This document shows, piece by piece, positions 16,790 to 48,523 of a DNA stretch of 64,000 nucleotides (position 1 is its first letter; each line of letters opens with the position of its first letter). The DNA comes from Woeseiaceae bacterium (lineage in GTDB: Bacteria; Pseudomonadota; Gammaproteobacteria; Steroidobacterales; Woeseiaceae): NCBI GenBank assembly GCA_028277185.1, contig JANQGQ010000026.1, positions 1 through 64,000 of the forward strand, given 5' to 3'. Under the pieces are notes generated by a model. That model had not been told where the DNA came from and searched no databases. It worked only from the letters and a program-made list of their open reading frames with translations. Both the position numbers and the translations under genes were made by a program.

Positions 16790-16811
16790 AGTGCCTCCGA
16801 AGACATGTTGA

Positions 16812-17297: not shown

Positions 17298-17372
17298 TGG
17301 TGCGTAATGCGGGATTCGAACCCGCGACCAATCGCTTTGGAGCGATAGCTCTCTCCACTGAGCTAAAAACGC
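17298..17372 (-). tRNA. Aberrant tRNA-like gene: anticodon stem ATCGC/GCGAT encloses a 6-nt loop TCCAAA (or an 8-nt loop with a 4-bp stem); CAA-type anticodon region; two T·T mismatches in the acceptor
   Basis: Good D-arm (GCTC-AGTGGAGA-GAGC), tmRNA-like T-arm GCGGG-TTCGAAT-CCCGC, ACCA 3' end; 5' acceptor GCGTTTT versus 3' ATTACGC. Confidence 0.4.
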
Positions 17373-17906: not shown

Positions 17907-17981
17907 TGGTGCCGACGAATGGTAACGATCCACTCTCTCCGGGGCTTCAACCCGGCGCTAATCCTTCTCAGCTACATCGGC
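17907..17981 (-). tRNA. tRNA-Phe(GAA) with an unusual T-loop (ATCGTTA)
   Basis: Acceptor GCCGATG/CGTCGGC, anticodon arm CCGGG-TTGAAGC-CCCGG, CCA encoded. Confidence 0.65.
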
Positions 17982-17995
17982 GTTGTTGGAGGATC

Positions 17996-18068
17996 TGGAA
18001 CCCTCTGAAAGAATCGAACTTTCATAAGCAGCGTTCGAAGCGCCGCCACCGGGTCCACCGGAGAGGGT
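17996..18068 (-). tRNA. Aberrant tRNA-like gene, anticodon region TCG (Arg-type), non-standard D-arm
   Basis: Perfect acceptor ACCCTCT/AGAGGGT, T-arm GAAAG-TTCGATT-CTTTC, discriminator T, CCA. The anticodon stem carries G·U pairs around loop CTTCGAA. The D region folds only as a CCGG/CCGG hairpin with no 8-9 spacer. Confidence 0.4.
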
Positions 18069-29211: not shown

Positions 29212-30495
29212 CTAGATCGATGCCAAGTCCAGCCGTCCGGCGCCGATCTTATTGTACCCGGACACCGTGTTTCGTGGGTCTGCCGCGGGTGCCAGATCGA
29301 CCGCTCGTAACAGCCTCACTTGCAAACTTGCCGGTCTGCGACGATCCGACGGGTACTTCTCCACCAGCAGAGCGGCGGCGCCGGCGACGAGCGGACTCGC
29401 CATCGACGTGCCGCTCTTGGGTGCATGGCCGCCGCCAGGAACCGCGCTCCAGACGCTCACGCCGGGTGCCGAGAGGTCGGGCTTCAGTACACCGTGCGTC
29501 GTTTCGATGCCCCAGTCGGAGAAGTCGGCCGAGAGGTCGGCCGGATCTGTCGCGCCGACGCCCAGGACGTTGTCGTAGTTGCCTGGACTACTATGATTGT
29601 TCACTCCCCTGCGGCCCGCGTTTCCGATAGCAGCGATGAGCAGTGCGCCCGGTACCTGACGCACTACTTCGACACTGGAGTGCAAATAGTCCCGGTAACC
29701 GCTGCCGCCAAGGGATGCGTTGATGACCGAGCACTGGCTGATGCCTGTGGTGGCGTGGTTGGCATGAGCGAGCCAATTGAAGCCCGCGAGAATCTGGGCA
29801 ACGTTGCCGGCCATGCCGCCGTTTGTCTTGGTCGTCAGCACTGCCGCGACCGCCAGATCTGCTTCCGGTGCAACGCCATACGTTGCTCCTGCCGCAAGGC
29901 CGGCTACGTGAGTTCCGTGTGTACCTGCATCGCGCGGTGTCGTCGAAACCAGAAAGCCGTTGCTGTCGTACTCCGCGAAGCTGATGCTCTTCCCGGAGAA
30001 ATCTGGGTGCGACGCATCGATTCCGGTATCGAGAATACCTATCCGAACGCCGTTACCCTTAATTCCCTGGCTCCAGGCCGCGGCGACGTTTATTTTCTCC
30101 AGGTGCCAGCGCTCGTCACCTGAGCTGTCCGCCGTTTCGATGGGTTCGACAAGCGGAACCTCGAAGTTCTCGATGACATCGCCGTATTCCCGCAGTCTGT
30201 TTAGCTGCTCATCGGTCGGGTCGTCAATGAGAATGGCGTCGAGCGTCTCGAGTACGCGGGGAGCTCTCTCGTCTCTGCCCGCGGCTATGGATTCGAGCGT
30301 CAGTTCGACAATGTTGCCGCCGCGGTCCACAGCACCGGAATCGGTGAACACGCGCTCTGGCTCGATTCCCGCCGCCTGAAGGGTACGTTGTGCGATATCC
30401 GCGCTCGCCAGCGATAGCTGCTCCGGTGCGGCGGCATACTCGCTGATGCGCGGTCCGAGCCTGTCATGGGGAAATACAATGTAAGTTTCACTCAC
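29212..30495 (-). CDS. Subtilisin-like serine protease (peptidase S8)
   Basis: Asp/His/Ser motifs (GILDTGID, HGTHVAG, GTSMASP). No obvious signal peptide; N-terminal propeptide-like region. Confidence 0.75.
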   Translation of the reverse strand: MSETYIVFPHDRLGPRISEYAAAPEQLSLASADIAQRTLQAAGIEPERVFTDSGAVDRGGNIVELTLESIAAGRDERAPRVLETLDAILIDDPTDEQLNRLREYGDVIENFEVPLVEPIETADSSGDERWHLEKINVAAAWSQGIKGNGVRIGILDTGIDASHPDFSGKSISFAEYDSNGFLVSTTPRDAGTHGTHVAGLAAGATYGVAPEADLAVAAVLTTKTNGGMAGNVAQILAGFNWLAHANHATTGISQCSVINASLGGSGYRDYLHSSVEVVRQVPGALLIAAIGNAGRRGVNNHSSPGNYDNVLGVGATDPADLSADFSDWGIETTHGVLKPDLSAPGVSVWSAVPGGGHAPKSGTSMASPLVAGAAALLVEKYPSDRRRPASLQVRLLRAVDLAPAADPRNTVSGYNKIGAGRLDLASI

Positions 30496-30533
30496 GAACG
30501 ATCCTCCTCTGCAATAGTCTTCCTGCTGTGCAC

Positions 30534-31181
30534 CTACGGGTTGTCGCTATTCGACTCGTCCACGACGTTGTGGCGTCCAGCGAGCGCCTTCGCCGCGAAA
30601 GCCAGCTCGGTCGCGGTATCGTACTGTTGCGTCTTCATAGCCTCGCCGATCATCGTCAGTTGGCTTTCGACGTTTTTCAGATCGCTTTTCAGCTCCAGGA
30701 CTTGCCTGGACTTTATTGCGGCGAGCAACCGGTCCTGTAGTGACTGGAACACCGATGTGCCCGCGGATCCCGCAACGATCGCGACCGCGAGCCAGGCAAG
30801 CGTGCTGTCCGGAGTGATCACCCAAAGTGCGATCAACGCCGCCGTACTGCCGATCACAAGTCGCGAGAAAACGCCAAGATCGTAAACAGACTTGTGCGTA
30901 GCGTGAGGAAAGTCTTTCGCCTCTTCCTCATTCGGCTTGTGTATCCATTCGACCATACCTTTGAGTGCTATTAGCTCGTATACGAATCCACCGATTGCGC
31001 CGAATAGCATCGTAATACCAACCGCCCTCCAGAATGTCGGTTCGCACAGTTGCCCGATAAGGCCTTTGAAGTCGATTGTTTGCGTCTGTTTCGTGACTTC
31101 GTCAGCCTCTAGCGCGCCAAGGGGCAAGATCAGCGCGAGCATTACCGGAACCATCAAGTAGCTGAAACGATGAGTTTCCAT
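30534..31181 (-). CDS. Membrane protein with C-terminal coiled-coil, unknown function
   Basis: 3-4 TM helices followed by a charged helical tail. Start at METHRF (ATG at 31179-31181). Confidence 0.45.
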   Translation of the reverse strand: METHRFSYLMVPVMLALILPLGALEADEVTKQTQTIDFKGLIGQLCEPTFWRAVGITMLFGAIGGFVYELIALKGMVEWIHKPNEEEAKDFPHATHKSVYDLGVFSRLVIGSTAALIALWVITPDSTLAWLAVAIVAGSAGTSVFQSLQDRLLAAIKSRQVLELKSDLKNVESQLTMIGEAMKTQQYDTATELAFAAKALAGRHNVVDESNSDNP

Positions 31182-31276
31182 TTTTAGTCTCCGTCCGATC
31201 TGATGCGAACCCGGTGTCGCTCCATCTGCAAGGGGCAAGATGTCTGCCGAATCGCCGGCTAAAGCCAGATCGTCTT

Positions 31277-32101
31277 TCAGAATGTTGTCGATATGAAAAC
31301 GAGCACGGACGCCTGAGATTCCTCCCGAAATCTGACTTCCGTTTCCATCGCAGGCGGTGGCTGGTTTTCGACGAAACCGTCGCCGAGCACCTTTACGCCC
31401 TGATCAAGCATGAGACCGAAACCAATGTTGAAACTATTTGGTCCTTCCGCCCTTTTTATCCCCAACATGACGCCACCGCCGAACGACGTCAGGGTGTCGT
31501 CGCCGGCAGCACCGAAGTTGACAGCTCCAAACAAGCCGAAACCCGCTTCGCGGTTCCCGATTTCGAAGTCCCTCACGAAGTTGTGTACCTCCAGCACGAT
31601 TCTCGGGTCATTGCTAACGTCCTTCGTAACTCTCACCACGCCGTTTACGATTTCCGCCTCACTGACGCGGTCATCGCCCAGTCCGAATCCGGCACCGACT
31701 CCGATACCCCACTTCCAGCCGAGGAACTCATTGCTGTCACTGAGCTGCTTCGCGACCTTTTGTGACGAAACCAGAGCCCGATCGATCTGGGCAATTCCGA
31801 CTTCGGCTTCAGCCGCACGGCGGGCGGCTGCCACCTGCTTCTCCGATCCCGCAACACCCATCGTCGCTCTGACAAGCGTTCGGTCGCGTAGGGTTTGAAG
31901 GCAATCCTGATAGACTCTGTTTCGCGCTTCTTCGCTTAGGCCAACGGCGTCGCTCGCCTGTTTCTGGCAGTTCTCGATAGTCTGTGCGTCACCCTCGGCG
32001 GCGTGTGAAACCAAGCTCATGCCGAGAACCACAAAGGCAGCCGTAATCGACGAGGCCCGTCTACTGCCTTTACTCCAGCCATCACTGAATCGAAACATCA
32101 A
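31277..32101 (-). CDS. Secreted hypothetical protein (Gly/Phe-rich, possibly a beta-barrel)
   Basis: Signal peptide and alternating GFG-rich segments; no recognisable domain. Confidence 0.45.
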   Translation of the reverse strand: MMFRFSDGWSKGSRRASSITAAFVVLGMSLVSHAAEGDAQTIENCQKQASDAVGLSEEARNRVYQDCLQTLRDRTLVRATMGVAGSEKQVAAARRAAEAEVGIAQIDRALVSSQKVAKQLSDSNEFLGWKWGIGVGAGFGLGDDRVSEAEIVNGVVRVTKDVSNDPRIVLEVHNFVRDFEIGNREAGFGLFGAVNFGAAGDDTLTSFGGGVMLGIKRAEGPNSFNIGFGLMLDQGVKVLGDGFVENQPPPAMETEVRFREESQASVLVFISTTF

Positions 32102-32430
32102 GATTCACCTCCCCGAGTTAGTTGTCCGTAGGCATACGCTGCGCCTGCTCTCATCGTGTCGGACTCGAAACAAAGCGGCGTCATAGTGGTTCAGTGTTCG
32201 CAGCGATCCGTTAGTCGCACCAGTCCGTGTCTGATCTGTCACCTTTGCTGGCTCTGCTCACTGACCGGCGGTCGCCTTTGTAGAGAAACTCTCATGGGAA
32301 ATCAGTCTGTTGAAAGGCTTCGTCAAGGTGCCTTCACACGCTATAATGGTGTTTCAAAAAACGACAAGAACAACGCTGAGCTGCGATTCACTAGCTGCTC
32401 GCTGCATCCAACATCTGGACCATCTTCGCT

Positions 32431-33093
32431 GTGCGGGATAAGGACAACGACGCGGCCGAAGCCGGTGACGATCACGGTGAGGGCGTGAACAAACCGCGTG
32501 AACCGGGAACTACGCCGGAAGCTTCCAGAGCGTCGGCACTCGCGATGCGCATTGCCCGGGGAGACGATGTCGCGGAAAGCGAGATGGTCAGGCTCTATGA
32601 GCCTGGTATGCGTCGTATCCTCCGAACCAGGACGGACCGCCCGTCCGACATAGACGACCTCGTCAATCAGGTCTGGCTGCTCGCGTTACCCAAGCTGCGA
32701 AACGGCGAGCTACGCGATCCACGGGCCTTGCCAGCGTACCTGAATACGTTTACCCGACGGGTCGCGAGGAACTATCTTCGCCTTTCAGCTCGGAAGACCG
32801 GAACCTCGGATACGGATTTTGTCGAGCAACAGGCGTCGCCGAGCGAAGGCCCATATGTCCGCCTCAAGTGGACGCAAGCCGTGGAAATTGCGTCTACACT
32901 GTTGGACAAGCTATCTGTAGAACGGGATCGCGAGATACTGAAGCGATTCTTCGTCCATGGCGAGGAGAGAGAGCGTATTTGTCGGGAGTTCGGCCTCGAC
33001 GCCGTGCAGTTCAACAAAGTCCTGCACCGTGCGCGCAAACGTTTCAAGGACCTGGCGCACTCGAGTATCAGCGACCTGATCGGCGCTGAGTAG
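32431..33093 (+). CDS. ECF (sigma-70 family) RNA polymerase sigma factor
   Basis: Region 2 (…DLVNQVWLLALPKL…) and region 4 (…ILKRFFVHGEERERICREFGLDAVQFNKVLHRARKRF). A shorter 182-aa form starts at 32545. Confidence 0.7.
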   Translation: MRDKDNDAAEAGDDHGEGVNKPREPGTTPEASRASALAMRIARGDDVAESEMVRLYEPGMRRILRTRTDRPSDIDDLVNQVWLLALPKLRNGELRDPRALPAYLNTFTRRVARNYLRLSARKTGTSDTDFVEQQASPSEGPYVRLKWTQAVEIASTLLDKLSVERDREILKRFFVHGEERERICREFGLDAVQFNKVLHRARKRFKDLAHSSISDLIGAE

Positions 33094-33099
33094 AAGACA

Positions 33100-33825
33100 A
33101 TGGATCGAGATTACGTCGAAAGATACAACGTCATCGAGCGTTACGTCCTCGGAAAGCTCAGCGAAGAGGAGGCAGCGGCGTTCGAGGATCTGTTCGTCTT
33201 CGACGAAGAATTGCGAGGCGAGATCGACGTCGTGGAGAAGCTTATTCACGGTGTTCGGGAGAACGTTGAGCCCAAGGCATCCAAAGAGCACGATTCGGAT
33301 GTGCCGGCTCGGGTCAAGGAGCCGAATCTCGACGACGTTCGCTCAAAGGTGCCGGAGTACGTCGATGCCGGCAGGCGCCGCCGATACGCGCTGCCGTTTT
33401 CTCTGGCGGCCAACTTCGTTCTGGCTGTTGCGATGGTATCGCTGCTAGTCGATGGTGGCGGACCGTCAGATGAGCCCGGACAACTTCCGAGTCATATCAA
33501 TCCGCCTGCCGTTCACCTGGAAGTGGCGCGAGATGGTGACGGAGCGGTACCTCGACTGGAGACCGGTGACGGCTGGGTTACGCTGCTCGTTGACGCTTCG
33601 CTGACGGATGTCGGTTCGGTTCAGTTGCGGCTCGTCGACGGCGACGGGCAGGTCGTTGCGGAGACGGGGACGTTCGAGAACGATCCGGGCAGGCCCTGGG
33701 TCGAGTGGCTCGTCGAACGCGACCGTCTGCAGCGCGGCCGTTATCGTGTCGAGTTCAGTGCGGCGGAAGCCGCGACCGACAGTCCGATAGCATTCGAATT
33801 GGATGTCGTTCCTCCGGGGGAGTAA
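33100..33825 (+). CDS. Anti-sigma factor (ChrR/RskA-like N-terminal domain, single TM)
   Basis: N-terminus ERYVLGKLSEEEAAAFEDLF typical of anti-sigma domains; a central TM segment; 6 nt downstream of the sigma gene. Confidence 0.55.
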   Translation: MDRDYVERYNVIERYVLGKLSEEEAAAFEDLFVFDEELRGEIDVVEKLIHGVRENVEPKASKEHDSDVPARVKEPNLDDVRSKVPEYVDAGRRRRYALPFSLAANFVLAVAMVSLLVDGGGPSDEPGQLPSHINPPAVHLEVARDGDGAVPRLETGDGWVTLLVDASLTDVGSVQLRLVDGDGQVVAETGTFENDPGRPWVEWLVERDRLQRGRYRVEFSAAEAATDSPIAFELDVVPPGE

Positions 33826-36800
33826 CGATAGCGCGCGAAGACGCGCCGGCTCCGTGTCCGGCCGTTCGGCCTGCATCACGGCGCTGCTGCTTTTCGCAAA
33901 TGAGCCTGCAACGTCTTCGGAGCTGCGGCTCGAGATTGCTGAACCGCTGCGCGTCGAACTCGAGGGCGATGAGCAACACGTGTACGTCCTTCCGACGAGC
34001 GGAGCGCAAGGCGTATATGTGTTGATTCGTCAGCTCGGCGTGGACGTCGTTGTGACGGCCGACACGGCCGACGGCGAATCCTCGAAATGGGACGCGCCGG
34101 GTGCCGAGTTCGGCGTGGAAACTATCGAAGCAGGCAATGGCACGCGGGTTCTGGTCGCCGCCAAGAACCCAGGGGCGTCTGGAGGCAGTTACGAGATTCT
34201 CGTGCTGGATCCGGCCGGGCTGACGCCCGATCGGCGCCGTGCGTTGTCGCTGTCTGCCGGCGCAGGCGTCGAGTACGGAAGGGGTACGCAGGAGGGATAC
34301 AGCGAGGCCGGAGTCCGATACTCCAGGGCAGCCGCAGCCTGGTCAGCGATAGACGGCTGGCGCACGGCGTACTCTCACTATCAGGCGGCGACAGCGCATC
34401 GGCACTGGGACGAACAGAGTTCTGCACTGGAACACTACGAAATGGCGCTGGCGATACTGGAGGACACCGAGGAATGGTTTTTGCGCGGTCGCGTGCACAA
34501 CGGCATCGGCCTGATTCTTCTCGATCAGGGTCATCGAATCGCTGAAGCCAGAACCCACTTCGAAGCAGCGCTGGAGGCGGCGGAGGCAGTGAAGGATCAC
34601 ACTATCGTCGGAGCAGCGCTCAACAACATATGCCTCGTCGCCCGCCATCATCTGGGCGAGCTCCGGGAGGCCGCCGATTGTTATACGCGGGCTATCGCCT
34701 ACTTCGAGGCGAATGAGCGCGCGGACCAAAAGGCCTTTGCCACTTACAACCTTGCCGTCGTGCTCCGCGACCTCGGAGAGCCGGACGCTGCCCGGAAGCG
34801 TTTTGTCCAGGCGCTGCAACTCGTCCGCCAGCAGGACAACGCCTACGGAATCGCCAAGGTGTTGATCAATTGGGCCGAACTCGAACTGCAGACCGGTAAC
34901 TATCAGAGAGCCCTGAATCAGTCTCTCGAGGCTCAGGGCTTGTTCGACCGCGTGGGAAGAAAGAACGACACGGCCCGGGCTCATCGACTGCTCGGCCGCC
35001 TGTACGCCGAAACCGGAGCACCGGAACGCGCACGCACTCATTTGATACCGGCCCTGACGATCTTCGAAGAAGGAAAGCTCTACCGGGACGAGGCGGTGAC
35101 ACTGTTTCTGCTGAGCCGTCTGGCTTCGGACGGCGCCGAGGCGACCGCCAACCTACAGCGAGCGTTGAGTCGTGCCGATGACGATCCGATTCTCCAATCG
35201 CGCATCCGCCTCGAGCTTGCCGAGACGCTTCTTCTGACGGGCGATCTGGATGGCGCTGAAGAGCACATCGAAGCGGCCATGCAACTCGCCGATGACCGAG
35301 GCGCCGAGCTGCTCCGGGCGCAGGCCAGGCTGGCGTCTGCTCGTTTGCTTGCCGGTCGCGAAAGATGGCGGGAAGCGGCCGCGCAGGCAGTGCTTGCCAA
35401 GAAGAGTTTTTCCGGTATTCGGTACCGACTGGGAGAGATCGAGACGATCCTGCTGCAGGCGCGCTTGGCGGAGCATTTGACGACAGGACCGAGGAAGCGG
35501 GAGTTGCTCGTCGCGGCGATGCGCGTTATCGACGACTTGTGGTTGACGCTCGACGTGCCGACTCTTCGTGCATCGCTGCTCGCCGCGCACCGCGAGGCTG
35601 TCGAGCAGCTCGTGAACCTCGAACTGAATGCGAGCGGCTCAGAGAGCGCACCGCTCGCCGCACTGATATGGGTCGAGCGCAATCGTGCCAGGTCGTTTCG
35701 CAATACGGTGTTTGCTGCAGGCGGCCCGGACGATCGCAGGCTGGACGCGCTGGAAGGGAAGGTCACCGAAATGCGCTTCCTGCTGCAGCAGCTGTTGTCG
35801 GACGACTCGCCCGTCGACGAGTTCACGCGCACCCGACGCCTTGCCAGGATCGACACGCTGCAGGCACAGCTTGAGGGCGAAGTTGCGAGTATCCGCGATC
35901 AGATCGGCGACGTCTCGCCCTTCGAATTGAGGGCGCTCCAGAAGCGTCTGGCCGCCGATGAGGCTATCGTAGAGTTCTTTATCGGTATTGAAGACGTGGT
36001 CATTTGGTACATCGACAGGGATGTGGCAATGACGGCGAGGATCGACGACGCGGCAGCTCTTGAGGCGCTCGCGGTCGATGTCCACAACAGAGTCCGCGCC
36101 GAGCCGCAGACTTCCCGCGCCACTCACGACATGCTCGTGCGATTGCGCGATCAAACGCTTGGGCCCTTTTCTGCGCGCCTCGTCAACAAGCGTCGCTTGC
36201 TCGTCATCCCCGATGGCGGACTCTGGCTCGTGCCGTTCACCGCCCTTCCGGGATTCACCGATCCGCGACGGCCTTTGGTTCGCGATGCCGCGATTGCGTA
36301 CAGTCACAGCCTGGCAGCGGTGGGTCGTGCGAGCCCCGACCGCCGTCGCACCGATCCCGCGGGAGTCTCCGTGCTGGCTGTCAGCAACCCCGTCTACTCC
36401 GGCGACGCGTCTGCCAGCCGCAGCCTGCTGCGGCTACAGCCGCTGCCACGCAGTCGACATGAGGCAATCAGGGTTCTTGATGTATTTCCTAACGCGGAAA
36501 AACTTCACCTGACGTCGTACGAATCGTCGAAAGCCCGATTGCTGCAAACTCGCGGCGAGTTTACCTACGCTCTGCTTGCGGTTCACGGCGTGCTGAATTC
36601 CGGCTTCCCCGCGCTCTCGGGTCTGGTGCTGTCCGAATTGCAAGAAGATGGCAGTCTGGTAAACGGCTTTCTGAGCACAACGGAAGTGCGATATCTACCT
36701 TGGAGCGCCGAACTGACTTTCCTGAGCGGCTGCGATACTGCGGTTGGGCCACGCATCTACGGCGAGGGCCTGATCAGCCTTGCGAGGGAGTTCCTGACAA

Positions 36801-37030
36801 ACGGTTCCGCTGACGTCGTGGCAACGCGGTGGCAGGTCAACGACGCTGCGGCTGCCGAACTGGCGGACGCGTTCTTCAGCGCGTTGAGGCAGAACCCGGC
36901 GCAGCCCGATCTGGCTTTGCAGAAGGCCCAATTAGCTATCCTCGACGCGAGGCGCTGGCACCGCTGGCATTCGCCACGCTACTGGAGTTCGCATCTGCTC
37001 CTGACCCATGACTGGCTGACGCGCAACTGA
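33803..37030 (+). CDS. Large TPR-repeat protein with C-terminal CHAT (caspase-like) protease domain
   Basis: C-terminal CHAT His/Cys dyad context (…YALLAVHGVLNSGFPALSGLVLSE… and …LTFLSGCDTAVGP…); multiple TPR-like repeats N-terminally. Overlaps the anti-sigma gene end by 23 nt. Confidence 0.75.
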   Translation: MSFLRGSNDSARRRAGSVSGRSACITALLLFANEPATSSELRLEIAEPLRVELEGDEQHVYVLPTSGAQGVYVLIRQLGVDVVVTADTADGESSKWDAPGAEFGVETIEAGNGTRVLVAAKNPGASGGSYEILVLDPAGLTPDRRRALSLSAGAGVEYGRGTQEGYSEAGVRYSRAAAAWSAIDGWRTAYSHYQAATAHRHWDEQSSALEHYEMALAILEDTEEWFLRGRVHNGIGLILLDQGHRIAEARTHFEAALEAAEAVKDHTIVGAALNNICLVARHHLGELREAADCYTRAIAYFEANERADQKAFATYNLAVVLRDLGEPDAARKRFVQALQLVRQQDNAYGIAKVLINWAELELQTGNYQRALNQSLEAQGLFDRVGRKNDTARAHRLLGRLYAETGAPERARTHLIPALTIFEEGKLYRDEAVTLFLLSRLASDGAEATANLQRALSRADDDPILQSRIRLELAETLLLTGDLDGAEEHIEAAMQLADDRGAELLRAQARLASARLLAGRERWREAAAQAVLAKKSFSGIRYRLGEIETILLQARLAEHLTTGPRKRELLVAAMRVIDDLWLTLDVPTLRASLLAAHREAVEQLVNLELNASGSESAPLAALIWVERNRARSFRNTVFAAGGPDDRRLDALEGKVTEMRFLLQQLLSDDSPVDEFTRTRRLARIDTLQAQLEGEVASIRDQIGDVSPFELRALQKRLAADEAIVEFFIGIEDVVIWYIDRDVAMTARIDDAAALEALAVDVHNRVRAEPQTSRATHDMLVRLRDQTLGPFSARLVNKRRLLVIPDGGLWLVPFTALPGFTDPRRPLVRDAAIAYSHSLAAVGRASPDRRRTDPAGVSVLAVSNPVYSGDASASRSLLRLQPLPRSRHEAIRVLDVFPNAEKLHLTSYESSKARLLQTRGEFTYALLAVHGVLNSGFPALSGLVLSELQEDGSLVNGFLSTTEVRYLPWSAELTFLSGCDTAVGPRIYGEGLISLAREFLTNGSADVVATRWQVNDAAAAELADAFFSALRQNPAQPDLALQKAQLAILDARRWHRWHSPRYWSSHLLLTHDWLTRN

Positions 37031-37113
37031 CGTAAGAGGTCGTTGGTGCGACTCCTGACTGTTCGGGAACACCAAGAATCGTGACATTCCAATACGAATA
37101 AGGATGATGAACG

Positions 37114-37476
37114 ATGGATAAGTTTCCAGACAGTGATTTCGAACTAGTCGTTTTGTGGAGCGATGCTTCCGATAGTTCCGTCCAGCTCAGAGTCGGCGCC
37201 GTTGTCGAGTTCGGGTTTGTCGGTGGAGACGACTATGACGTGACGTTTCCAGAAGCGTTGTACTCAGCGCTGTTTGAGGACGCGAGCGGCTCTCGCACCC
37301 TGAGATTCAGGCGCACTGATCCCAGAAAGATGGTCTATGAAGGCAATGTCCGGCTTGGAGCGTTCTATTGCTCGGTATCCTTGATCGGTGCCTTCGCTAA
37401 CTCGTTTGCTGCTAGTCACTACTCCCTGTCGGGGGGCGGCGACAATCAAAGTGGAGGTTGGGGCGGTGGTTGGTAA
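37114..37476 (+). CDS. Hypothetical small protein (120 aa, Gly/Trp-rich C-terminus), low-GC gene
   Basis: ORF only; GC is clearly lower than the neighbours. Confidence 0.35.
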   Translation: MDKFPDSDFELVVLWSDASDSSVQLRVGAVVEFGFVGGDDYDVTFPEALYSALFEDASGSRTLRFRRTDPRKMVYEGNVRLGAFYCSVSLIGAFANSFAASHYSLSGGGDNQSGGWGGGW

Positions 37477-38854
37477 GCCAAAGATCAGGATTCTGGCTAT
37501 CGCCGATAGCGTATTGAACTTCGAGCCGAACAAGGAAGACAGCCTCGATTTGGCATTAAGCACTGTAACGCAGTCTGCTCGCTACGAATTCGACATTGTC
37601 CGGCATCACATGAGTACGCCGACGTTGCCTAATCTGGATGATTTCCAGCAAGTATGGCTGTTCGGTCGAGACGATAGTGACCAGTCGAATCCCGACGTTA
37701 CGTACGCTATCACCCGATTCATGATGAGCGGCGGCGGTGTTTTCGCTACTGGCGATCATAAGAAGTTGGGTCGAAAACTGTGCGGTGATCTGCCGCGCCT
37801 GAGATACATGCGAAGCTGGGAAGAGGGCAAGATACCCAAGAGACTTGGTTTTCCCAAGCTGGGCGCATACCCGACACCGGCTGGCGAGCGCTACAACTTT
37901 CGCCTGGACTCAAGCGCTCCCAAAACGTTTTTCACCCCGCGAGGGACACCGGACGACAGGTTCCTCGAGTACGATTGTGTGCCGAAGTCGATCGAGGCGC
38001 GGCTGCTATGGGGCTCGGCTTCGCCGTCTCCGCACCCAGTTGTTCGCATGTCCGACGATACTCCGTTGCGAGTGTTGCCCGATCATGCTCACGAAGGGGC
38101 GTGCTTCGACCTGGGCAGCACAGATAAGCCGATACCTGGATTCAGCGATGCCAAGCCAGAGGTCATAGCAGACGCGTACACGTATTCAGGAATGTCCATT
38201 CGCACCGATTACGTTCAAGTCTCCCAACAGTACGGCGTTATCTCAGTTTACGATCCGCCCAAACGCAATGGCTGGGGGCGAATCGTCACCGACTCTACAT
38301 TTCATCACTGGGTGAATAAGAACGTTCAGCCCTTCAAGGATGCTGCAGAAGTAGATGAGCTTGGTGCGCAGGTTTGGCGTAGCATCAAGCAGTATTACCT
38401 GAACGTCGCCGATTGGCTGGTACCGAGATATATACGTGCTCATTTGCTCAAACGCTATGTCGAGTACGTCATAGCGCATACCGATGTGAGGAACTCCATA
38501 GCCGGTCTGGATCTCGCGAAAGAGGATCAACGGATTCTGGTAGCCAGAGAAGTACTCGGAGAGCTGGACAGGCGGTATCGACGCTCGATCGTAGCCGAGC
38601 TTGTCGAGGATGTCATAGCCGACTCCGTCGAGGAGGCGGAAGCCTACAAGGCGTTTGGTGAGGAACTCGCGAAGTTGAGGTATGACCATCCAGTAGTGGC
38701 GGACGCCGTTTACGAGGCACTGATTGTCGAGGTGATTTCGAGCATGCTGACCGACATCGACGGTATGTCGGAACTCGGATCGCCCGTACGGCGGGCCCTG
38801 AGTGGCGTTCAGCACGCTGTGAATTCGCTCGGCAGGGCCTGGGCCGGGCGCTGA
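37466..38854 (+). CDS. Hypothetical protein (about 460 aa), low-GC gene, no recognisable domain
   Basis: GTG at 37466 with GGAGG 8 nt upstream; overlaps the previous stop by 11 nt. The ORF-track start at 37388 is also possible. Confidence 0.45.
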   Translation: MVGKPKIRILAIADSVLNFEPNKEDSLDLALSTVTQSARYEFDIVRHHMSTPTLPNLDDFQQVWLFGRDDSDQSNPDVTYAITRFMMSGGGVFATGDHKKLGRKLCGDLPRLRYMRSWEEGKIPKRLGFPKLGAYPTPAGERYNFRLDSSAPKTFFTPRGTPDDRFLEYDCVPKSIEARLLWGSASPSPHPVVRMSDDTPLRVLPDHAHEGACFDLGSTDKPIPGFSDAKPEVIADAYTYSGMSIRTDYVQVSQQYGVISVYDPPKRNGWGRIVTDSTFHHWVNKNVQPFKDAAEVDELGAQVWRSIKQYYLNVADWLVPRYIRAHLLKRYVEYVIAHTDVRNSIAGLDLAKEDQRILVAREVLGELDRRYRRSIVAELVEDVIADSVEEAEAYKAFGEELAKLRYDHPVVADAVYEALIVEVISSMLTDIDGMSELGSPVRRALSGVQHAVNSLGRAWAGR

Positions 38855-39089: not shown

Positions 39090-39752
39090 TCAGTCGTAGC
39101 GTACGATGAAGTTCGGTTGTGCGTACTCGACGTCGTCACGGCCGGGCAGCATTTCGACCAGACTGATCGTAAGCGCGTTGACGTCGATCGACAGCGCCAG
39201 CTCCCCGGAAGGTAATCGCCGGGAAATCACCGGATAGTCGAAGCCCCTGATCAAAGGTTCTGCAAGTTCGGTCAGTGCCGGGTCCGGCTGGCGGCTGGCC
39301 GTCGGCGACATTCGCTCGAGCGCGGCGAAGCTTTGGCTGCCGTCGAGGAACGAAACGAGGACCTCCTCCCGGGCACGAGGAGAACTGCGATCCCCGGAGC
39401 TTCGATGGCACTCCGCCACGTCCGGTGCCTGGGAAACGTGCTCTTCGAGTGCGGTCAGCAGTTCGTCCGGGCGCACTTCGAGGATCAGCTCGCGACCGGA
39501 CGTGATGCGGGCTGCTTCGAACGGGATACCCGTTTCCTTCGAGAGTGCGGCGGCGAAGCGGTTGATCTCGCTGTTGAGTTCGCCGCCCTTGCTCAGCGAA
39601 TCGCCGATAACTTCGCCGATGCGTTCGTCACTCGAGAATTTGACGATGACTTCGGCGACGAACCCGGACTGCTGCGGTTCGTCGTTCGCCATCGAGCAGC
39701 CGCATACGGCCATTGCGAGAGCAGTCCCCGAAATCACTACCCAGTTAAACAT
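39090..39752 (-). CDS. Secreted protein ending in a subtilase-prodomain-like segment (…DVEYAQPNFIVRYD)
   Basis: Signal peptide. The C-terminal motif is almost identical to the prodomain end of the adjacent S8 protease (…DVEYAQPNYIVEIA). Overlaps the upstream gene by 8 nt. Confidence 0.5.
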   Translation of the reverse strand: MFNWVVISGTALAMAVCGCSMANDEPQQSGFVAEVIVKFSSDERIGEVIGDSLSKGGELNSEINRFAAALSKETGIPFEAARITSGRELILEVRPDELLTALEEHVSQAPDVAECHRSSGDRSSPRAREEVLVSFLDGSQSFAALERMSPTASRQPDPALTELAEPLIRGFDYPVISRRLPSGELALSIDVNALTISLVEMLPGRDDVEYAQPNFIVRYD

Positions 39753-40269
39753 GGCTTTGCGGCGCGCGTGGCGGCCGGCTCCAGAAAAAAAGAAAAGCGA
39801 TTGTCGCCACGGCCATCAATCCCTCGCCGATCCATTCGTGAGCGAAGGCGAACTGCCACGGCGAATAGACGCCTACATAATATAGACCGATCAGGCGCAG
39901 CGAGTTCAGAACGGCCAGCAGCAGCGTCCCGAGAGCGACGCCGGCTATCGCCTTGCCGGCCGGCATCGGCAGGGCGATGAGGAAGGCCGCAAGCACGAGT
40001 GCGGGTATCAGCACGGTGCAGCGATATCCGATCTGGATGCCGAAGCCCGTCGGATGGTGCAGCGTGGTGCCGTCGAGCGCCGCGGGCAGACCGATGGCGT
40101 TGAGCGACCAGTGAGTCGTCGCCGCCGTCGGGAGGTCGAGCAAGGCGACGACACCATGCTCGCCGCCGCCCGCAAGCAGTATCGCGCTCAGTGCCAGACA
40201 CAGCGCAGTTGTCAGGCGCCCCGGCGGAGGAATCCACGTCGCAGGTTGCCGAATCTCCGACGCTGCCAC
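39745..40269 (-). CDS. Short polytopic membrane protein, exosortase/archaeosortase-like (candidate sorting enzyme)
   Basis: 5-6 TM helices with a Cys (YRCTV), an Asn-x-x-Arg motif (LNSLRLIG) and a His (FAHEWIGEG) in the order seen in exosortases. At 174 aa it is shorter than classical EpsH. Starts 2 nt after the S8 stop. Confidence 0.4.
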   Translation of the reverse strand: MAASEIRQPATWIPPPGRLTTALCLALSAILLAGGGEHGVVALLDLPTAATTHWSLNAIGLPAALDGTTLHHPTGFGIQIGYRCTVLIPALVLAAFLIALPMPAGKAIAGVALGTLLLAVLNSLRLIGLYYVGVYSPWQFAFAHEWIGEGLMAVATIAFLFFWSRPPRAPQSHV

Positions 40270-40271
40270 GC

Positions 40272-42107
40272 TCAGGTCGCCGCCGTCTGACGGATCCTCC
40301 GGAAGTAAAGGGCGACCAGCGCTGCCAACAAAAGAACGAGCAGCAGGCCGGACAGGACCGATCCGACGGCGACGTCGGACGTTGCACGAACCGCGGCTCC
40401 GCTACCGGGCGCTTCGATCGTGATCTGCGCGCTGCCCCTGGTGATTGCGGTGACAGTCGAGGATGCGTTGCCCGATGCGTCGGTTGTGGCCGTGTTCGGT
40501 GAAACGGTTATGACCGCGGTGTTCGATGACGTGAAGCTCACGGTTTCTCCGGCTATGCCGGAGCCGCCGGCTTCCAGGCTCACGGTAAGCGTTTCGCTGT
40601 CGCCGTTTCGCAATCGCATGTTGCCGGGCGCGGTCAACGATGGCGGTCCGCCGCTCACGCCCAGGGCAGCAGCGGCATCGAGCAGACCGGCGCCGCAAGG
40701 CTCAGGGCACTGCGCCGCCGAGCGTGGCATTGCGGTGCTCTTGAGCGTCGCTTCGACTTGCTGCGGCGTCAGGGTATCGTCCGCGGCGAGCATCAGTGCC
40801 GCGACGCCCGCTACGTGCGGCGATGCCATCGACGTGCCGTTATAGAAGGCATAGCCGCCCTGCACGGTGCTCAGTACGCCGCCCGAGGGATTGCCCTGCG
40901 TGTCGCCCCCCGGCGCCAGGATGTCGATGGTGTTGCCGAAGTTCGAATACCTCGTCACTAGCTCGCCGTTCCGATTCCCCGCGGCAACCGTGATTACGCC
41001 GTCGCAGCTTGCCGGCATTGCGTTGGCCGCATCCTTCGCATCGTTGCCCGCCGCCACGACAACGGTAACTCCCCTGGCGACGACGTCATTGATCGCGGCC
41101 TGTGTGGCCGGTGAGCTCGAGCACGGAATCCCGGCGCCGAGACTCATGTTGATGACTTGCGCGGGATTCGGGTTGGCGGGCGTGCCCGGCACGGGCATGC
41201 CGGCGGCCCAGCGCACGGCGTCGTTGATGTCGCCGACGTTGCCGCCGCACTTGCCGAGCACGCGGACGCTCACGACGCCTCCCTGCCAGCTCACGCCGGC
41301 GATGCCGGTGCTGTCGTTGCTGTTGGTGACGCCGACCGTGCCGGCGACGTGCGTGCCGTGCCAGCTATCGCCGCGCGCTGGATTGATGAAGAGCGGCGGG
41401 CACTCACCGGCTGCGACGGCGTCCCCTTCATCGGTCGGATCGGCGTCGCGGCCGTCGCCGTCCTGCGACGTAAACGTGCTCGTGATCATGTCGTAGCCGC
41501 CGAGCTGAGTCGGCGAACTCGCAATGTCCGGGTGATTCGGCAGGATGCCGGTATCGATAACCGCGACGACGACGCCGGCATCGCCGGTCGTCACGTCCCA
41601 CGCCCGCGGCAGGTTTATGCCGCCCGCTGCCTGTCCGGAGCCGGTGCCGTTGTTGAAGTAGTGCCACTGCTGTGCATAGCCCGGATCTATAGGCTCGGCG
41701 GCGATCTCGACGATGTAATTTGGCTGTGCATACTCGACGTCGCCCCGTTCGGAGAGTCGTTTCGCGAGGTCCGCAGCCGAACGCGTCGCTTCCTCTACGG
41801 CAGCGGCCGTCGCGTAATCCTCACCGAGCGTAAAGATCATCTCGCCGCCCGAAGTCCGCGTGAGATTCGCCTCCCCGACGCCCATCGCCTCGAGCTGCGG
41901 TCCCGTCATCGGGTCCGCGCCTTCCTTGAACTTGACGATCACCTGGCCGGGTTCCCAGCGAACCTGCCGTTCCGCGTCGAGGACGACGTTCATCGCTTCG
42001 GTCGCTTCGGCGACGATTTCGATCTCTTGCGCGTCTGCCCCCGGGAATCCAAACGCTGTCGACGCAAGCAGCGTAGCGGTCAGGCGGCATATAGTTTTTG
42101 TATTCAT
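40272..42107 (-). CDS. Subtilisin-like serine protease (S8) with an N-terminal prodomain and a C-terminal TM helix plus Arg cluster (sorting-signal-like tail)
   Basis: Signal peptide (MNTKTICRLTATLLASTAFG), catalytic motifs (DTGI, HGTHVAG, GTSMASPHVAG), and a C-terminus …VAVGSVLSGLLLVLLLAALVALYFRRIRQTAAT. AAGGGGG SD before the ATG at 42105-42107. Confidence 0.75.
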   Translation of the reverse strand: MNTKTICRLTATLLASTAFGFPGADAQEIEIVAEATEAMNVVLDAERQVRWEPGQVIVKFKEGADPMTGPQLEAMGVGEANLTRTSGGEMIFTLGEDYATAAAVEEATRSAADLAKRLSERGDVEYAQPNYIVEIAAEPIDPGYAQQWHYFNNGTGSGQAAGGINLPRAWDVTTGDAGVVVAVIDTGILPNHPDIASSPTQLGGYDMITSTFTSQDGDGRDADPTDEGDAVAAGECPPLFINPARGDSWHGTHVAGTVGVTNSNDSTGIAGVSWQGGVVSVRVLGKCGGNVGDINDAVRWAAGMPVPGTPANPNPAQVINMSLGAGIPCSSSPATQAAINDVVARGVTVVVAAGNDAKDAANAMPASCDGVITVAAGNRNGELVTRYSNFGNTIDILAPGGDTQGNPSGGVLSTVQGGYAFYNGTSMASPHVAGVAALMLAADDTLTPQQVEATLKSTAMPRSAAQCPEPCGAGLLDAAAALGVSGGPPSLTAPGNMRLRNGDSETLTVSLEAGGSGIAGETVSFTSSNTAVITVSPNTATTDASGNASSTVTAITRGSAQITIEAPGSGAAVRATSDVAVGSVLSGLLLVLLLAALVALYFRRIRQTAAT

Positions 42108-42154
42108 TTCGAACCCCCTTCGTCCTGTCGTTGTAGTTCGCGTCTGCCGCAAGC

Positions 42155-43780
42155 TCAGTCGCCGGGTGTAGTGGCGAAGCCCTGCTGACTGACCCAATCT
42201 CTCATCTCGAAGAGCAGAGGATCCTCCCGATCCTCGAACTCGATCTGTACAGCGCCTTCGAACCATCCCGTTACGCGTCGGCGCAACAGCGCCTCGGCGG
42301 ACTCGAGCGCCCGTCGGCGAACGCGCCGCTCGACGTTTTCCACCGATGTGTTGATGCTGCGGGTGACGAAGGAGCCAAGGTTTTCGTCGACCTTTTCCTG
42401 CGGACCCTCTTCCCATGCCTTCTTGCTGCCGGTCTGTACGACGAAACTCGTCCGGCGATCGCTGGACAGCCGCGCAGGCCTCTTGAGCCGCACCGTGGCC
42501 GTGGTTTCGCCGGCGAACGGCCGCGGCGGTCGAACGGCGGTCGGTGCCACGGCGCTGCCATATACGATGTTGGTGACGTCACGCTGAAGGTAGAGCCCCT
42601 CCTGATCGAACCAGTACCAGGGGCGCCAGGCCGTATCCATGCCGAACATCGTCGAAATGGTCACCTGAATAGCCCCGAGCCCGGCCGCGTCGGCGAGCAA
42701 TGCGGATTCCTCGGCGCCCCATGTCCTGAGCCGTAAACGTGCAGTCTCGATTTCCTGCGCCAGGTTGCCGGCGACGGTCGCCGCGGCGTTCGGATCGAAT
42801 CCGCTTATCTCCACCGGCGCGATTCCGTCAGGCTCCACGCCGGCCATCGCCGCGGCCCCTTCATGCGGCAGGATGTCCTGCGCCGAGAGCCAGACGCGCT
42901 GTCCCATCAGCTCGGTGAGCTCGGCCTGACCCGTCGTAATGGTCTCCGCCGAGCGTTGCCAGGCCGCCGTCAGTAACTCGCGCCAACAGACCGGTTGATC
43001 GGCCGCGGCGACCTCGGGCGTTCCGGGTTCCGGCGGTTGCGCGATACAGGCTCCGGTGACCGCGTCGACGAGCGTGGCCGCAGCGAACTGCGCCTGCTTC
43101 ATATGAACGAGTTTCACGCCGTCGCGATCGAGTACTTCCCATACCTCCTGTTTCAGTAGCGTTCGCTGGGCACCGTCCTCGTTCTTGCGCATACAGGAAC
43201 GTGTGTGAACGGCGGGTTGAGCCTGCGACCCCAGCGGATGCATCGCGAGGATCTTCGCGGGAGGAAACGCAATACCGGACAAATCGTCCAGAGCCGATCC
43301 GCTGCCCCTGCGCGCGGTCACCTGGCGTTCGAGGTTCTCGCGAAACTCAGCGAACGACGGGTAGCCGATCGCGATCTCGTAAGAGTGCACGCAGTACCGG
43401 AACGACTTGATGCTGACCTCGGCGCCAGTCTCTGAATACAGCGCAGCGTACAGGTCGGTGTTGTCGATCTGCCGGTCGAGGATTCGGGGAAGCGAGTACT
43501 CCTTGCGGTTCGAGCCGGTTTCCGGGTAGGTGATCCAGAGGAGGTCGACGCCGGCAACGCTCGTTACGAGCTGGTCGTTGGCTTCGAAGCCTTCGACGCG
43601 TGAGATAGTGAACGAATCGAATTCCGCGGTGCTTTTGAAGAACGACAAGATTGCCTTGCCGATCGACCAGGCCAGCACGCCGAGCAGGATCACGATCAGC
43701 AACGTCACCCAATTGATGACGTTCTCGAACCGGTTGAGAATCGTGGAGGGCAGGGGCATTGGGGTCTCCTGATCAGTCAA
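42155..43780 (-). CDS. Hypothetical membrane-anchored protein (541 aa)
   Basis: One N-terminal TM segment; its start overlaps the upstream gene by 8 nt (operon). Confidence 0.5.
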   Translation of the reverse strand: MTDQETPMPLPSTILNRFENVINWVTLLIVILLGVLAWSIGKAILSFFKSTAEFDSFTISRVEGFEANDQLVTSVAGVDLLWITYPETGSNRKEYSLPRILDRQIDNTDLYAALYSETGAEVSIKSFRYCVHSYEIAIGYPSFAEFRENLERQVTARRGSGSALDDLSGIAFPPAKILAMHPLGSQAQPAVHTRSCMRKNEDGAQRTLLKQEVWEVLDRDGVKLVHMKQAQFAAATLVDAVTGACIAQPPEPGTPEVAAADQPVCWRELLTAAWQRSAETITTGQAELTELMGQRVWLSAQDILPHEGAAAMAGVEPDGIAPVEISGFDPNAAATVAGNLAQEIETARLRLRTWGAEESALLADAAGLGAIQVTISTMFGMDTAWRPWYWFDQEGLYLQRDVTNIVYGSAVAPTAVRPPRPFAGETTATVRLKRPARLSSDRRTSFVVQTGSKKAWEEGPQEKVDENLGSFVTRSINTSVENVERRVRRRALESAEALLRRRVTGWFEGAVQIEFEDREDPLLFEMRDWVSQQGFATTPGD

Positions 43781-45044
43781 ACGGCAGCGTGAACATGCCG
43801 CTCTCGAATTCGGCGTCGGCCTTTTGCCGGCGAATGAGGGCGAGTACCGATCCCGACCTGAAATCGCCGTCCGCGACAGTGTTCAGCCGTTGTTGCAGTT
43901 CCCGGGCTTTGTCGCCGCTCGAGCCGAATCGAATGCGTTCGTAGCCGTTGACGAATTCAGCGCTCCGCCCGGCGGCAAGCGCTCCTTCGAGGCCGGTGAG
44001 CAGCACGTAGCGGTAGGCCCGGCCGTCGTCCGACGTTCCCGGCGTTGCGGCAAGGCCCGCGGCGCGGCGAAACTCTGCCCATGGCCCGCTGACCCGGCCG
44101 TTACGATGCGAGCCGAGAACGACCTGACATCCTGCAGAGGAGTAATACGGCGGTGAATTGCGGCCGTAGAAGTGCGCGGCATGAATATTGTCCGCCGGCC
44201 GCCCCACCTCCCAGCCTTCGGACGGATCGTTGCTTTTGTATATCAGATCGTTGCCGGTACGGACGACGACGACCCTATCGGCCTCCCGAAAAGCCCCGTG
44301 CTGCGGGTTGCTGCTGTTGGCGCGGTGGGTGCCGACGGAGTACCGGTACATACCGGTAGGCAGCAGGTTGCATCCTGCTATCGCGTACCGGTACAGGAAC
44401 ATGTACGACACTTCGGGCACGGTCGAGCCGGGAAAGAGCCGCAGTCTGTCGGCTTCCCGGTCCCAGACGCCGAGTACGCAACGCGGTGCCATGTGATTGG
44501 GCAGGGTCCATTTCAGCGGATGCGACGGCGCCCAGGCGGTCGCATCGTCAGTATTCGGGATGAGGCAGCCGCGAAGGCCGAACAGGACCCTGGGGTTGCT
44601 GCCGAGGTCGTGGAAATGGTTTCTCTCGATCAGGAACTTCAGGGTGTCCAGCGATAGCTCGAAATCCTCAGCGGGCGGCGAGTACGCGCCGAGATGCGCG
44701 TAGTCGTTGGACTCGGCAAGCGGTGCCCACGCTGGCGGTTCGCGATCGGGTTTACGCCACCACAGGCGGTTCTCGCGAATGTCGTTGATGATCTCACCCA
44801 TGATCTGGAAGCCGGGATCGACCGACAACGGATTCCAGGCCGCCGCGTGCTCTTCGCCTGACTGGCCGTGCGCCGATGCCGCAAAGCCCGCGGCGCCGCT
44901 TGACGGGACACCCAGACGGTCGGATTCCTGAATGAGGAAGCGAATGAGCTCCTCGTCGTCGCCCGGCGAATGACAGTCCGCGCGTGACGCGGACAAGGGT
45001 ATCGATGCGGCGACGAGGGCCTCGAGAAAGCGTCGTCTGTCCAT
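43773..45044 (-). CDS. Hypothetical Tat-secreted protein (423 aa)
   Basis: Twin-arginine motif (MDRRRFLEALVAASIP); no recognised domain. Confidence 0.5.
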   Translation of the reverse strand: MDRRRFLEALVAASIPLSASRADCHSPGDDEELIRFLIQESDRLGVPSSGAAGFAASAHGQSGEEHAAAWNPLSVDPGFQIMGEIINDIRENRLWWRKPDREPPAWAPLAESNDYAHLGAYSPPAEDFELSLDTLKFLIERNHFHDLGSNPRVLFGLRGCLIPNTDDATAWAPSHPLKWTLPNHMAPRCVLGVWDREADRLRLFPGSTVPEVSYMFLYRYAIAGCNLLPTGMYRYSVGTHRANSSNPQHGAFREADRVVVVRTGNDLIYKSNDPSEGWEVGRPADNIHAAHFYGRNSPPYYSSAGCQVVLGSHRNGRVSGPWAEFRRAAGLAATPGTSDDGRAYRYVLLTGLEGALAAGRSAEFVNGYERIRFGSSGDKARELQQRLNTVADGDFRSGSVLALIRRQKADAEFESGMFTLPFD

Positions 45045-45395
45045 TGCTGCCTCTGTAGTCGGCGAACGAACTGCCGGGATCCGGCCGAACCCGCCTGGCG
45101 ATTGTCGTCGCGCTGCTTCAGGCAGGTACCGGCCCGCGTTAACTATATGTGGCCTAAGGGGACCGTATTAATCGTTGTTCTGTTTGGCCAGCTCGAAATT
45201 CTTGCGAGTTCAATTGCGCCGGCAGGACCACATACCCAGCATTATAGACCGTGTTCAGGGGACAAACTGTGAAAAAAACCGTCCCGAGGGGGCATATTGC
45301 GCGCCTCGACCCAAAGACCGGACTATACTTAAGGCAGCGGCACGAATTCGTCACAATAAAACCAAATACGCTATCCCGGCGGGAGGTGACCAGCT

Positions 45396-48503: not shown

Positions 48504-48523
48504 GTACGTAAAGGCGACGGGAA

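Follow-up and report, generated by a model that had tools for sequence, protein, structure and literature searches.

An apparent envelope-spanning module of an ECF sigma factor, a single-pass anti-sigma factor and a TPR-CHAT protease in a Woeseiaceae bacterium

Gene content and layout of the locus

The present study focused on a gene cluster at positions 29212–38854 of a 64,000-nucleotide stretch of DNA from a Woeseiaceae bacterium (GenBank contig JANQGQ010000026.1, positions 1 to 64,000), hereafter called the window. Its core consists of four conserved genes, specifying a sigma factor of the extracytoplasmic function (ECF) type, a single-pass anti-sigma factor, a predicted secreted protein that combines tetratricopeptide repeats (TPR) with a caspase-like CHAT protease domain, and a small protein with a C-terminal tryptophan (Trp) motif. 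The first three of these are found together in relatives across distant clades, and the cluster is tentatively read as an envelope-spanning signalling module. An earlier note on this DNA had listed six genes, all of which were recovered at the same coordinates from the open reading frame (ORF) list and family scans of the window, but it overlooked two genes further downstream (120 and 462 aa), and the first of these, directly after the CHAT gene, specifies the most conserved of the putative outputs. The features of the module are as follows.

29212–30495, minus strand: S8 subtilase, 427 aa (Pfam Peptidase_S8 PF00082, E 3e-42; D156, H193, S364)
30534–31181, minus strand: membrane protein, 215 aa (gene call in an identical public contig; a longer ORF runs to 31238)
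31277–32098, minus strand: secreted Gly-rich protein, 273 aa, with a signal peptide
32194–32220, minus strand: promoter-like motif GTGCGAC-N16-ACAC, reading into the divergent operon
32320–32347, plus strand: sigma-70-like promoter TCGTCA-16-TATAAT, upstream of the sigma gene
32431–33093, plus strand: ECF-type sigma factor, 220 aa (TIGR02937, Sigma70_r2)
33100–33825, plus strand: single-pass anti-sigma factor, 241 aa (NF052375, sub-threshold; transmembrane segment 96–121)
33803–37030, plus strand: TPR-CHAT protein, 1075 aa (CHAT, E 3e-46; TPR_12, E 3e-26)
37046–37072, plus strand: promoter-like motif GTGCGAC-N16-ACAC, reading into the 120-aa gene
37114–37476, plus strand: small, predicted all-beta protein, 120 aa (ORF; gene call in identical contigs)
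37466–38854, plus strand: 462-aa protein (ORF; gene call in identical contigs)

The sigma and anti-sigma genes are separated by 6 nt and the anti-sigma and CHAT genes then overlap by 23 nt, so that the three are compatible with one transcription unit, as the earlier note had proposed. The 462-aa gene overlaps the 120-aa gene by 11 nt, and both are counted with the unit.

Conservation of the sigma factor, anti-sigma factor and CHAT linkage

Five independent relatives from the same sigma clade have enough flanking DNA for comparison (L004, L005/L006, L007, L008 and L009). At all five an anti-sigma homologue directly follows the sigma gene, and a CHAT gene lies within about 5 kb. The CHAT gene of L005–L007 is on the opposite strand, convergent with the sigma and anti-sigma genes, so the link is one of neighbourhood and not always of an operon. 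A search with the CHAT protein gave three full-length homologues of 27–28% identity, from unrelated samples (L016–L018). Beside each of them is a sigma factor 32–40% identical to that of the window, and an anti-sigma factor whose homology extends across the N-terminal as well as the outer domain.

A scan of GTDB genomes with the sigma factor of a sister clade gave 50 loci, almost all from Acidobacteriota (Thermoanaerobaculia, Holophagales), with at least two genomes giving two loci each. Partner genes at these loci were detected with hidden Markov models built from the alignments of this study. An anti-sigma gene follows the sigma gene in about 47 of the 50; about 35 have a CHAT gene no more than 10 kb away, and several of the others are short contigs. 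Three unrelated ECF loci from the same scan had neither an anti-sigma nor a CHAT partner (0/3). Since the adjacency recurs in every relative examined it is not due to chance and represents a real, conserved module, and the view that the sigma factor, anti-sigma factor and TPR-CHAT protein form a functional unit is supported. The earlier note had given a CHAT adjacency that failed to be conserved as part of what would count against it; the adjacency is conserved, and that refutation fails.

The window clade itself is genuinely rare. Its sigma factor has 15 close cluster representatives among 5.8 billion, scans of GTDB species genomes and of IMG/VR with the sigma alignment gave no matches, and a scan of JGI metagenomes gave only three loci, one of which was already in the set. 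The window clade is rare, but the same architecture is common in uncultured Acidobacteriota.

The genes of the module do not all share the same nearest relatives. The window sigma factor is closest to those of L004, L005 and L007 (67–68% identity), and the CHAT, small-protein and 462-aa genes (33803–38854) are closest to L008 9092–14132 (32–37% identity). Because of this difference, it is suggested that the CHAT cassette has been swapped between sigma lineages.

The sigma factor, anti-sigma factor and TPR-CHAT protein

The sigma factor scores above the family cut-offs (TIGR02937, 44.9 bits against 42.9; Sigma70_r2, 29.1 against 24, E 9e-7) and has regions 2 and 4 only, as in the ECF group (sigma-70 group 4). 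No more specific subfamily model reached its cut-off in the family-model scans, and the sigma profile found no solved relative among sequences in the Protein Data Bank (PDB) at E <= 0.001. The position of the start codon is kept in the relatives.

The anti-sigma factor matches the NCBIfam model NF052375 ('antisigma') with E 1.7e-10, under the model cut-off. It has a cytoplasmic N-terminal domain of about 55 aa, a transmembrane segment at residues 96–121, and a periplasmic, beta-rich outer domain of about 110 aa. The N-terminal domain is near-invariant and co-varies with the sigma factor (rho 0.92), and the outer domain is common to the window and sister clades. The two clades differ in the zinc motif HxxxCxxC, which is kept in the sister clade (HYLSCQDC); at this position the window clade has neither Cys nor His (FEDLFVFDEEL), and by sequence it has lost the zinc ligands that the sister clade retains. 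A comparison of the anti-sigma factor with PDB sequences gave a cystatin match at chance level only.

The TPR-CHAT protein begins with a signal peptide, followed by a beta-rich N-domain of about 130 aa, the TPR region, and a C-terminal CHAT domain whose catalytic His/Cys pair (H928/C977 in the window) is invariant in all six orthologues. The N-termini carry a basic stretch, then a short run of hydrophobic residues and an Ala-rich site resembling a cleavage site, and such signal-peptide-like starts are found in the window, L005, L008, L009, L016–L018 and most GTDB loci. From inspection and hydropathy we read this as export to the periplasm. Given the signal peptide of the CHAT protein and the transmembrane segment and outer domain of the anti-sigma factor, the protease and this outer domain are predicted to share a compartment.

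When the CHAT-domain profile was compared with PDB sequences, the best solved match was 8rot_B (E 1.5e-4, with some 125 residues matched), a chain of 991 aa described as a 'CHAT domain-containing protein'; from this length and description we take it to be the anti-sigma factor DdvA. The next-best solved matches were type III-E TPR-CHAT chains (E 3.5e-4 to 3e-3). A full-length CHAT query against the PDB was swamped by TPR proteins and found nothing else, and tblastn of the CHAT protein against plasmids found only distant cyanobacterial CHAT proteins.

Promoter-like motifs

A two-block element was first seen by eye in aligned regions upstream of the sigma gene. Written as GTGCGAC-N15/16-[AT]CAC, it has two copies in the 64-kb window, against 0.23 expected for a looser form of the pattern, and the window together with seven related loci (170 kb) holds 10 matches, against 0.48 in shuffled sequences. 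All 10 sites fall into two intergenic classes, each site being oriented toward the following gene. The first class lies directly upstream of the small gene after CHAT (window, L005, L007 and L008), the second upstream of the operon divergent from the sigma gene (window, L004, L005, L007 and L009), and L009 has an extra copy facing its sigma gene. In the sister clade a different though related element, GGTGAGATA-N11/12-CGCGACAG, is found before the small gene that follows CHAT, before paralogous small genes, and before a TPR gene that follows the anti-sigma gene; at L016 it also precedes an S8/PatG-like operon. Because the motif has two blocks at a fixed spacing, is directed toward genes, and changes with the sigma clade, it is read as the putative promoter of the module's own sigma factor.

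The earlier note had recommended a promoter search upstream of the divergent operon and of the sigma gene, and both regions gave a candidate: the two-block motif at 32194–32220 on the minus strand, and a sigma-70-like promoter at 32320–32347 on the plus strand. The TATAAT box of the latter, and the leader that follows it, are kept in L005 and L007. A sigma-70-like promoter conserved in this way before the sigma gene suggests that the sensor genes are made constitutively.

The leader, from the TATAAT box to the sigma start (32348–32430), contains a conserved AACGACAAGAACAAC stretch, and in the relatives a short inverted repeat precedes the sigma start codon. Rfam gave no matches over 28.5–39.5 kb, the leader included.

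Putative output genes

Of the putative targets, the small Trp-motif protein is the most constant. An ORF of 100–145 aa carrying the motif follows 25 of the 40 CHAT genes that have room downstream, compared with 1% of control ORFs, and near-variants of the C-terminal motif occur in other small genes that follow CHAT. It takes the form GSWTAED at many sister loci, GTWSGDD in L005 and L007, and SGGWGG in the window and L008. The 120-aa protein of the window has only four relatives among 1.84 billion representatives, and its body is 30–39% identical among them while its last 11 residues are invariant: the tail DNQSGGWGGGW (37444–37476) is identical in a relative of 39% overall identity and near-identical in two others at about 30%. 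The protein has no signal peptide, and a low-confidence model of it is all-beta and gave no significant structural match. Such a conserved tail could be a ligand of the TPR domain.

The 462-aa protein that follows has a GATase1-like/ThuA-like N-domain with an invariant His/Asp/Glu cluster, and a helical C-domain. True class I glutamine amidotransferases have a catalytic Cys-His-Glu triad. The fold is recognizable (apparently ThuA/IFT52-N type, class I glutamine amidotransferase-like) and uninformative on function. The protein occurs as a partner in two lineages only, and its wider family has no conserved neighbourhood, the relatives being solitary genes in housekeeping contexts.

On the divergent side, the membrane protein has a signal-like N-terminus, three further hydrophobic or transmembrane segments and a C-terminal helical tail, with a weak DUF4257 match. 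It recurs together with the S8 subtilase in L005/L006 and L007 (53% and about 30% identical), where the S8 gene holds the equivalent operon position, and both are absent from L004, L008 and L009. The subtilase has a complete Asp-His-Ser triad and an N-terminal extension of about 130 aa. Lacking a signal peptide, and encoded in an operon behind a putative sigma promoter, it looks like an output and not a trigger. The earlier note had proposed that the sigma factor is released by proteolysis through either CHAT or S8. The CHAT half of that model is the most economical reading of the locus, and the S8 half did not hold up, action of the subtilase on the anti-sigma factor being unlikely for the reasons just given and because the gene is near the module in three of six window-clade lineages. 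It is found at very few sister loci as well, and as a general partner of the module it was rejected.

The secreted Gly-rich protein, found only in the window lineage, ends in ...VLVFISTTF and from inspection of its sequence is a possible outer-membrane beta-barrel; family scans and PADLOC gave no family match. Among the outputs PADLOC matched the S8 protein only, with its generic 'subtilase' model, and returned nothing for the 120-aa, 462-aa, membrane and secreted proteins.

At L016 (4286–8000, Thermoanaerobaculaceae) the sister motif precedes a 286-aa gene of the PatA/PatG-type S8 family together with a PatG_D/PatG_C protein. Small ORFs without annotation that lie upstream of CHAT also have the motif before them, and one of these, with the C-terminus ...SWTAVEGG, is apparently a paralogue of the small protein.

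Comparison with known systems

The earlier note knew of no described pathway with this wiring, but precedents exist: the DdvS/DdvA pair, the type III-E TPR-CHAT/Csx30 system and the neighbours of ECF54 each anticipate part of it. A full-text literature search combining ECF, CHAT domain and anti-sigma brought up papers on DdvA and on CRISPR (clustered regularly interspaced short palindromic repeats) only, and CHAT goes unmentioned in the main text of the ECF reclassification paper.

DdvS/DdvA is the nearest precedent, and the present module is apparently a split, two-protein version of DdvA, the one known anti-sigma factor with such a protease. DdvA of Myxococcus xanthus is an anti-sigma factor of 991 aa that crosses the membrane once and has a TPR-CHAT module as its large periplasmic part; this bulky domain blocks RseP, and a signal-activated CHAT has been proposed, though not demonstrated, to cut the linker in trans within a dimer (PMC11506125). 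In both systems the sigma gene adjoins a co-oriented gene for an anti-sigma factor with a single transmembrane segment, the TPR-CHAT part with its His/Cys pair is predicted to be periplasmic, and CHAT is the proposed site-1 protease in a proteolytic release of the sigma factor. The differences are considerable. In the window and all relatives a separate ORF, with a signal peptide of its own, encodes the TPR-CHAT protein; the anti-sigma factor carries a small, beta-rich outer domain, and a small Trp-motif gene accompanies CHAT. DdvA has a cytoplasmic, zinc-bound CHCC domain of three helices, whereas the window anti-sigma factor lacks zinc ligands, and the predicted targets and window ORFs scanned contain no domains of CRISPR or of the cyclic oligonucleotide-based antiphage signalling system (CBASS). 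Fused forms, sought by the authors of the DdvA study, were found only in Myxococcota and one Comamonas (PMC11506125), in contrast to the split form of Acidobacteriota and the rarer window clade. Since the module has neither the fusion nor the zinc domain nor a defence regulon, membership of the DdvS/DdvA family was rejected.

The likeness to the type III-E craspase is looser. That system comprises Cas7-11, the TPR-CHAT protease Csx29, Csx30, Csx31 and CASP-sigma/RpoE, and cleavage of Csx30 by Csx29 frees the sigma factor (PMC10028731; bioRxiv 10.1101/2023.06.23.546230). In common are a TPR-CHAT protease proposed to cut a sigma-sequestering protein, so freeing an ECF-type sigma factor, and a small accessory protein encoded alongside. 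The craspase, however, is cytoplasmic and switched on by RNA-guided target binding, whereas in the module the CHAT protein is predicted to be exported and it is a membrane anti-sigma factor that does the sequestering. No Cas-like protein was seen among the module genes or the flanking ORFs scanned, a scan that did not include a repeat search for CRISPR arrays. Since there is no Cas7-11 and the CHAT protein has a signal peptide, membership of this system was rejected also.

In classical regulated intramembrane proteolysis, sigma-E is controlled through RseA, DegS and RseP, and AlgU through MucA and AlgW. The module resembles these in its single-pass anti-sigma factor and in that a cut in the outer domain would be expected to license intramembrane cleavage. 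It differs in its candidate site-1 enzyme, which the module itself encodes and which is a cysteine protease of caspase-like type and not a DegS-type serine protease, and in that the sigma gene is apparently not autoregulated at most loci. ECF54 sigma factors likewise have CHAT and subtilase genes nearby. They are actinobacterial, with carboxypeptidase, subtilase and CHAT neighbours, lack an anti-sigma factor, and have been suggested to be controlled by proteolysis (PMC8999054, PMC7826278). Since a clear anti-sigma factor is present here, membership of ECF54, as that group is described, was rejected.

Proposed mechanism and alternative explanations

The reading that we prefer, tentatively, is that the module signals across the envelope, with a periplasmic CHAT protease cutting the outer domain of the anti-sigma factor and so freeing the sigma factor. 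It is quite possible, though we stop short of calling it probable, and cleavage of the anti-sigma factor in trans by CHAT carries the same confidence or slightly less. The sigma factor, anti-sigma factor and CHAT protein would be made from the housekeeping-type promoter, the N-terminal domain of the anti-sigma factor would tether the sigma factor at the membrane, and the exported TPR-CHAT protein would share the compartment of the outer domain. An extracytoplasmic cue, read through the TPR region or the N-terminal domain, would lead CHAT to cut the anti-sigma factor outside the membrane (the site-1 step), after which intramembrane proteolysis would free the sigma factor. The free sigma factor would then transcribe from the two GTGCGAC-N15/16-ACAC promoters, one serving the 120-aa and 462-aa genes and the other the operon for the secreted protein, membrane protein and S8 subtilase.

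Several observations weigh against this. In L005–L007 and much of the sister clade the CHAT and sigma genes lie on opposite strands or a few kb apart, the divergence of CHAT is uncoupled from that of the sigma factor (rho -0.05), and co-variation between the outer domain of the anti-sigma factor and CHAT is not significant (partial r 0.28, p ~0.1, 9 loci). The CHAT cassette has apparently been exchanged between sigma lineages, and in L009 the CHAT gene is downstream of a putative sigma-dependent promoter, which would make it an output there. The small protein, having no signal peptide, cannot easily meet a periplasmic CHAT. Textbook ECF promoters follow the pattern GGAAC/CGT, which the two-block motif does not resemble. 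Even for DdvA, the analogy on which the reading leans, cleavage of the anti-sigma factor by CHAT has only been proposed.

The main rival draws on many of the same facts: an unlinked, conventional site-1 protease may switch the sigma factor, with CHAT and its small partner a co-located cargo or output cassette (for example, an exported protease and its own substrate) and not the trigger. We judge this rather unlikely, while taking it seriously. It would account for a CHAT/small-gene pair that looks exchangeable and is the tightest pair of all, for the lack of clear co-variation between CHAT and the outer domain, and for the motif before the CHAT gene in L009. It sits less well with the window and L008, where CHAT is co-oriented with the anti-sigma gene (overlapping it, and about 100 nt downstream, respectively) and the sigma-type motif comes after CHAT and not before it. 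It also leaves unexplained the conserved linkage to this sigma/anti-sigma family across distant clades, and the fusion in DdvA argues for a direct functional tie (PMC11506125).

A different question is that of purpose. The module could be a conflict or antiviral regulator like DdvS/DdvA, sensing attack on the envelope by a phage or competitor and with toxic or abortive effectors as its outputs (the membrane protein with a cytoplasmic S8 subtilase, and the 120-aa with the 462-aa protein), which is compatible with cleavage by CHAT as the mechanism. Such a role is possible but thinly supported, and on balance we think it improbable. Flanking genes of defence type occur at some relatives (TIR-TPR and SLATT at L004, NACHT and a transposase at L008, a methyltransferase and helicase at L005), the CHAT cassette is fast-evolving and shuffled, the distribution is patchy and rare, the S8 gene matches the PADLOC 'subtilase' model, and the DdvS/DdvA regulon is a CBASS-CRISPR island (PMC11506125). 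Set against these, the subtilase match is generic and the remaining outputs drew none, the window ORFs scanned include no CRISPR, CBASS or other recognized defence genes, genomes of the sister clade carry more than one copy among ordinary metabolic neighbours, and the relatives of the 462-aa protein are solitary and in housekeeping settings.

Least likely is that the small Trp-motif protein is a precursor whose tail the 462-aa GATase1-like protein and S8 modify or clip once the sensor has fired, and not otherwise, so as to give a peptide or cofactor-like product. The invariant tail on a divergent body, the overlap with an enzyme-like gene, and the PatA/PatG- and QhpE-type S8 genes and PatG_D/PatG_C protein under the same kind of promoter at L016 point that way, but at 100–145 aa it would be a long precursor, only two lineages have the 462-aa partner and few have S8, conserved radical-SAM, cyclase or exporter genes are lacking, and similarities to proteins of ribosomally synthesized and post-translationally modified peptide pathways fall under family cut-offs.

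Returning to envelope signalling by CHAT, a bolder version would make the four core genes a self-contained circuit from caspase to transcription. CHAT would be the site-1 protease acting in trans, and the primary target of the sigma factor would be the small protein, whose Trp tail would be either a TPR ligand, closing a feedback loop, or a substrate for the enzymes induced along with it. The circuit would work without a CRISPR or nucleotide signal, and it would be widespread in Acidobacteriota and rare elsewhere. In this full form it is unlikely. In DdvA the protease and its substrate are one polypeptide, so that cutting could only be proposed; here the protease and the presumed substrate are separate genes, which makes trans-cleavage assays, catalytically dead controls and reconstitution in a foreign host straightforward, and the candidate promoter with its short list of target genes offers a read-out. 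If the proposed mechanism is true, transcription in many uncultured soil and marine bacteria is controlled by caspase-like proteases that act outside the cytoplasm and without dependence on CRISPR or CBASS, and the very common annotation 'CHAT domain-containing tetratricopeptide repeat protein' would gain a first function.

Surrounding genes

Just downstream of the module is a protease-rich cluster (39090–49669), in which the sigma-type motif has no copies. It contains the following.

A 207-aa gene
39737–40387: exosortase EpsH-like gene
40272–42416: S8 protein with a Big_1 domain
Two unassigned genes
45396–48503: S8 protein of 1035 aa
48524–49669: Trypsin_2 protein

Upstream of the module, a dense array of 15 tRNA genes occupies 14317–18384 on the minus strand, with a further tRNA-Leu gene at 12494–12572 on the same strand. 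The array includes a duplicate Ile(gat), two Ser genes, and an odd tRNA (17298–17372) called with a four-base anticodon (ccaa). GC content falls to 0.56–0.59 across 14–20 kb, and a blastn comparison of the array with phages gave short, tRNA-sized matches only. A trio of GFO_IDH, DUF3604 and sodium-solute-symporter genes lies beside the module in L005 (2391–6899), and about 20 kb away from it in the window (4800–9321). Since the tRNA array and other genes sit between the trio and the module in the window, an insertion in the window lineage is suggested.

A second large TPR regulator is encoded near the module at 21484–24036 on the plus strand, an 850-aa protein in which a long TPR region comes after an OmpR-type DNA-binding domain (Trans_reg_C). 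At L017, a 107-aa ORF (11897–12220) made up almost entirely of EESLPxD repeats lies between the small-protein and sigma genes.

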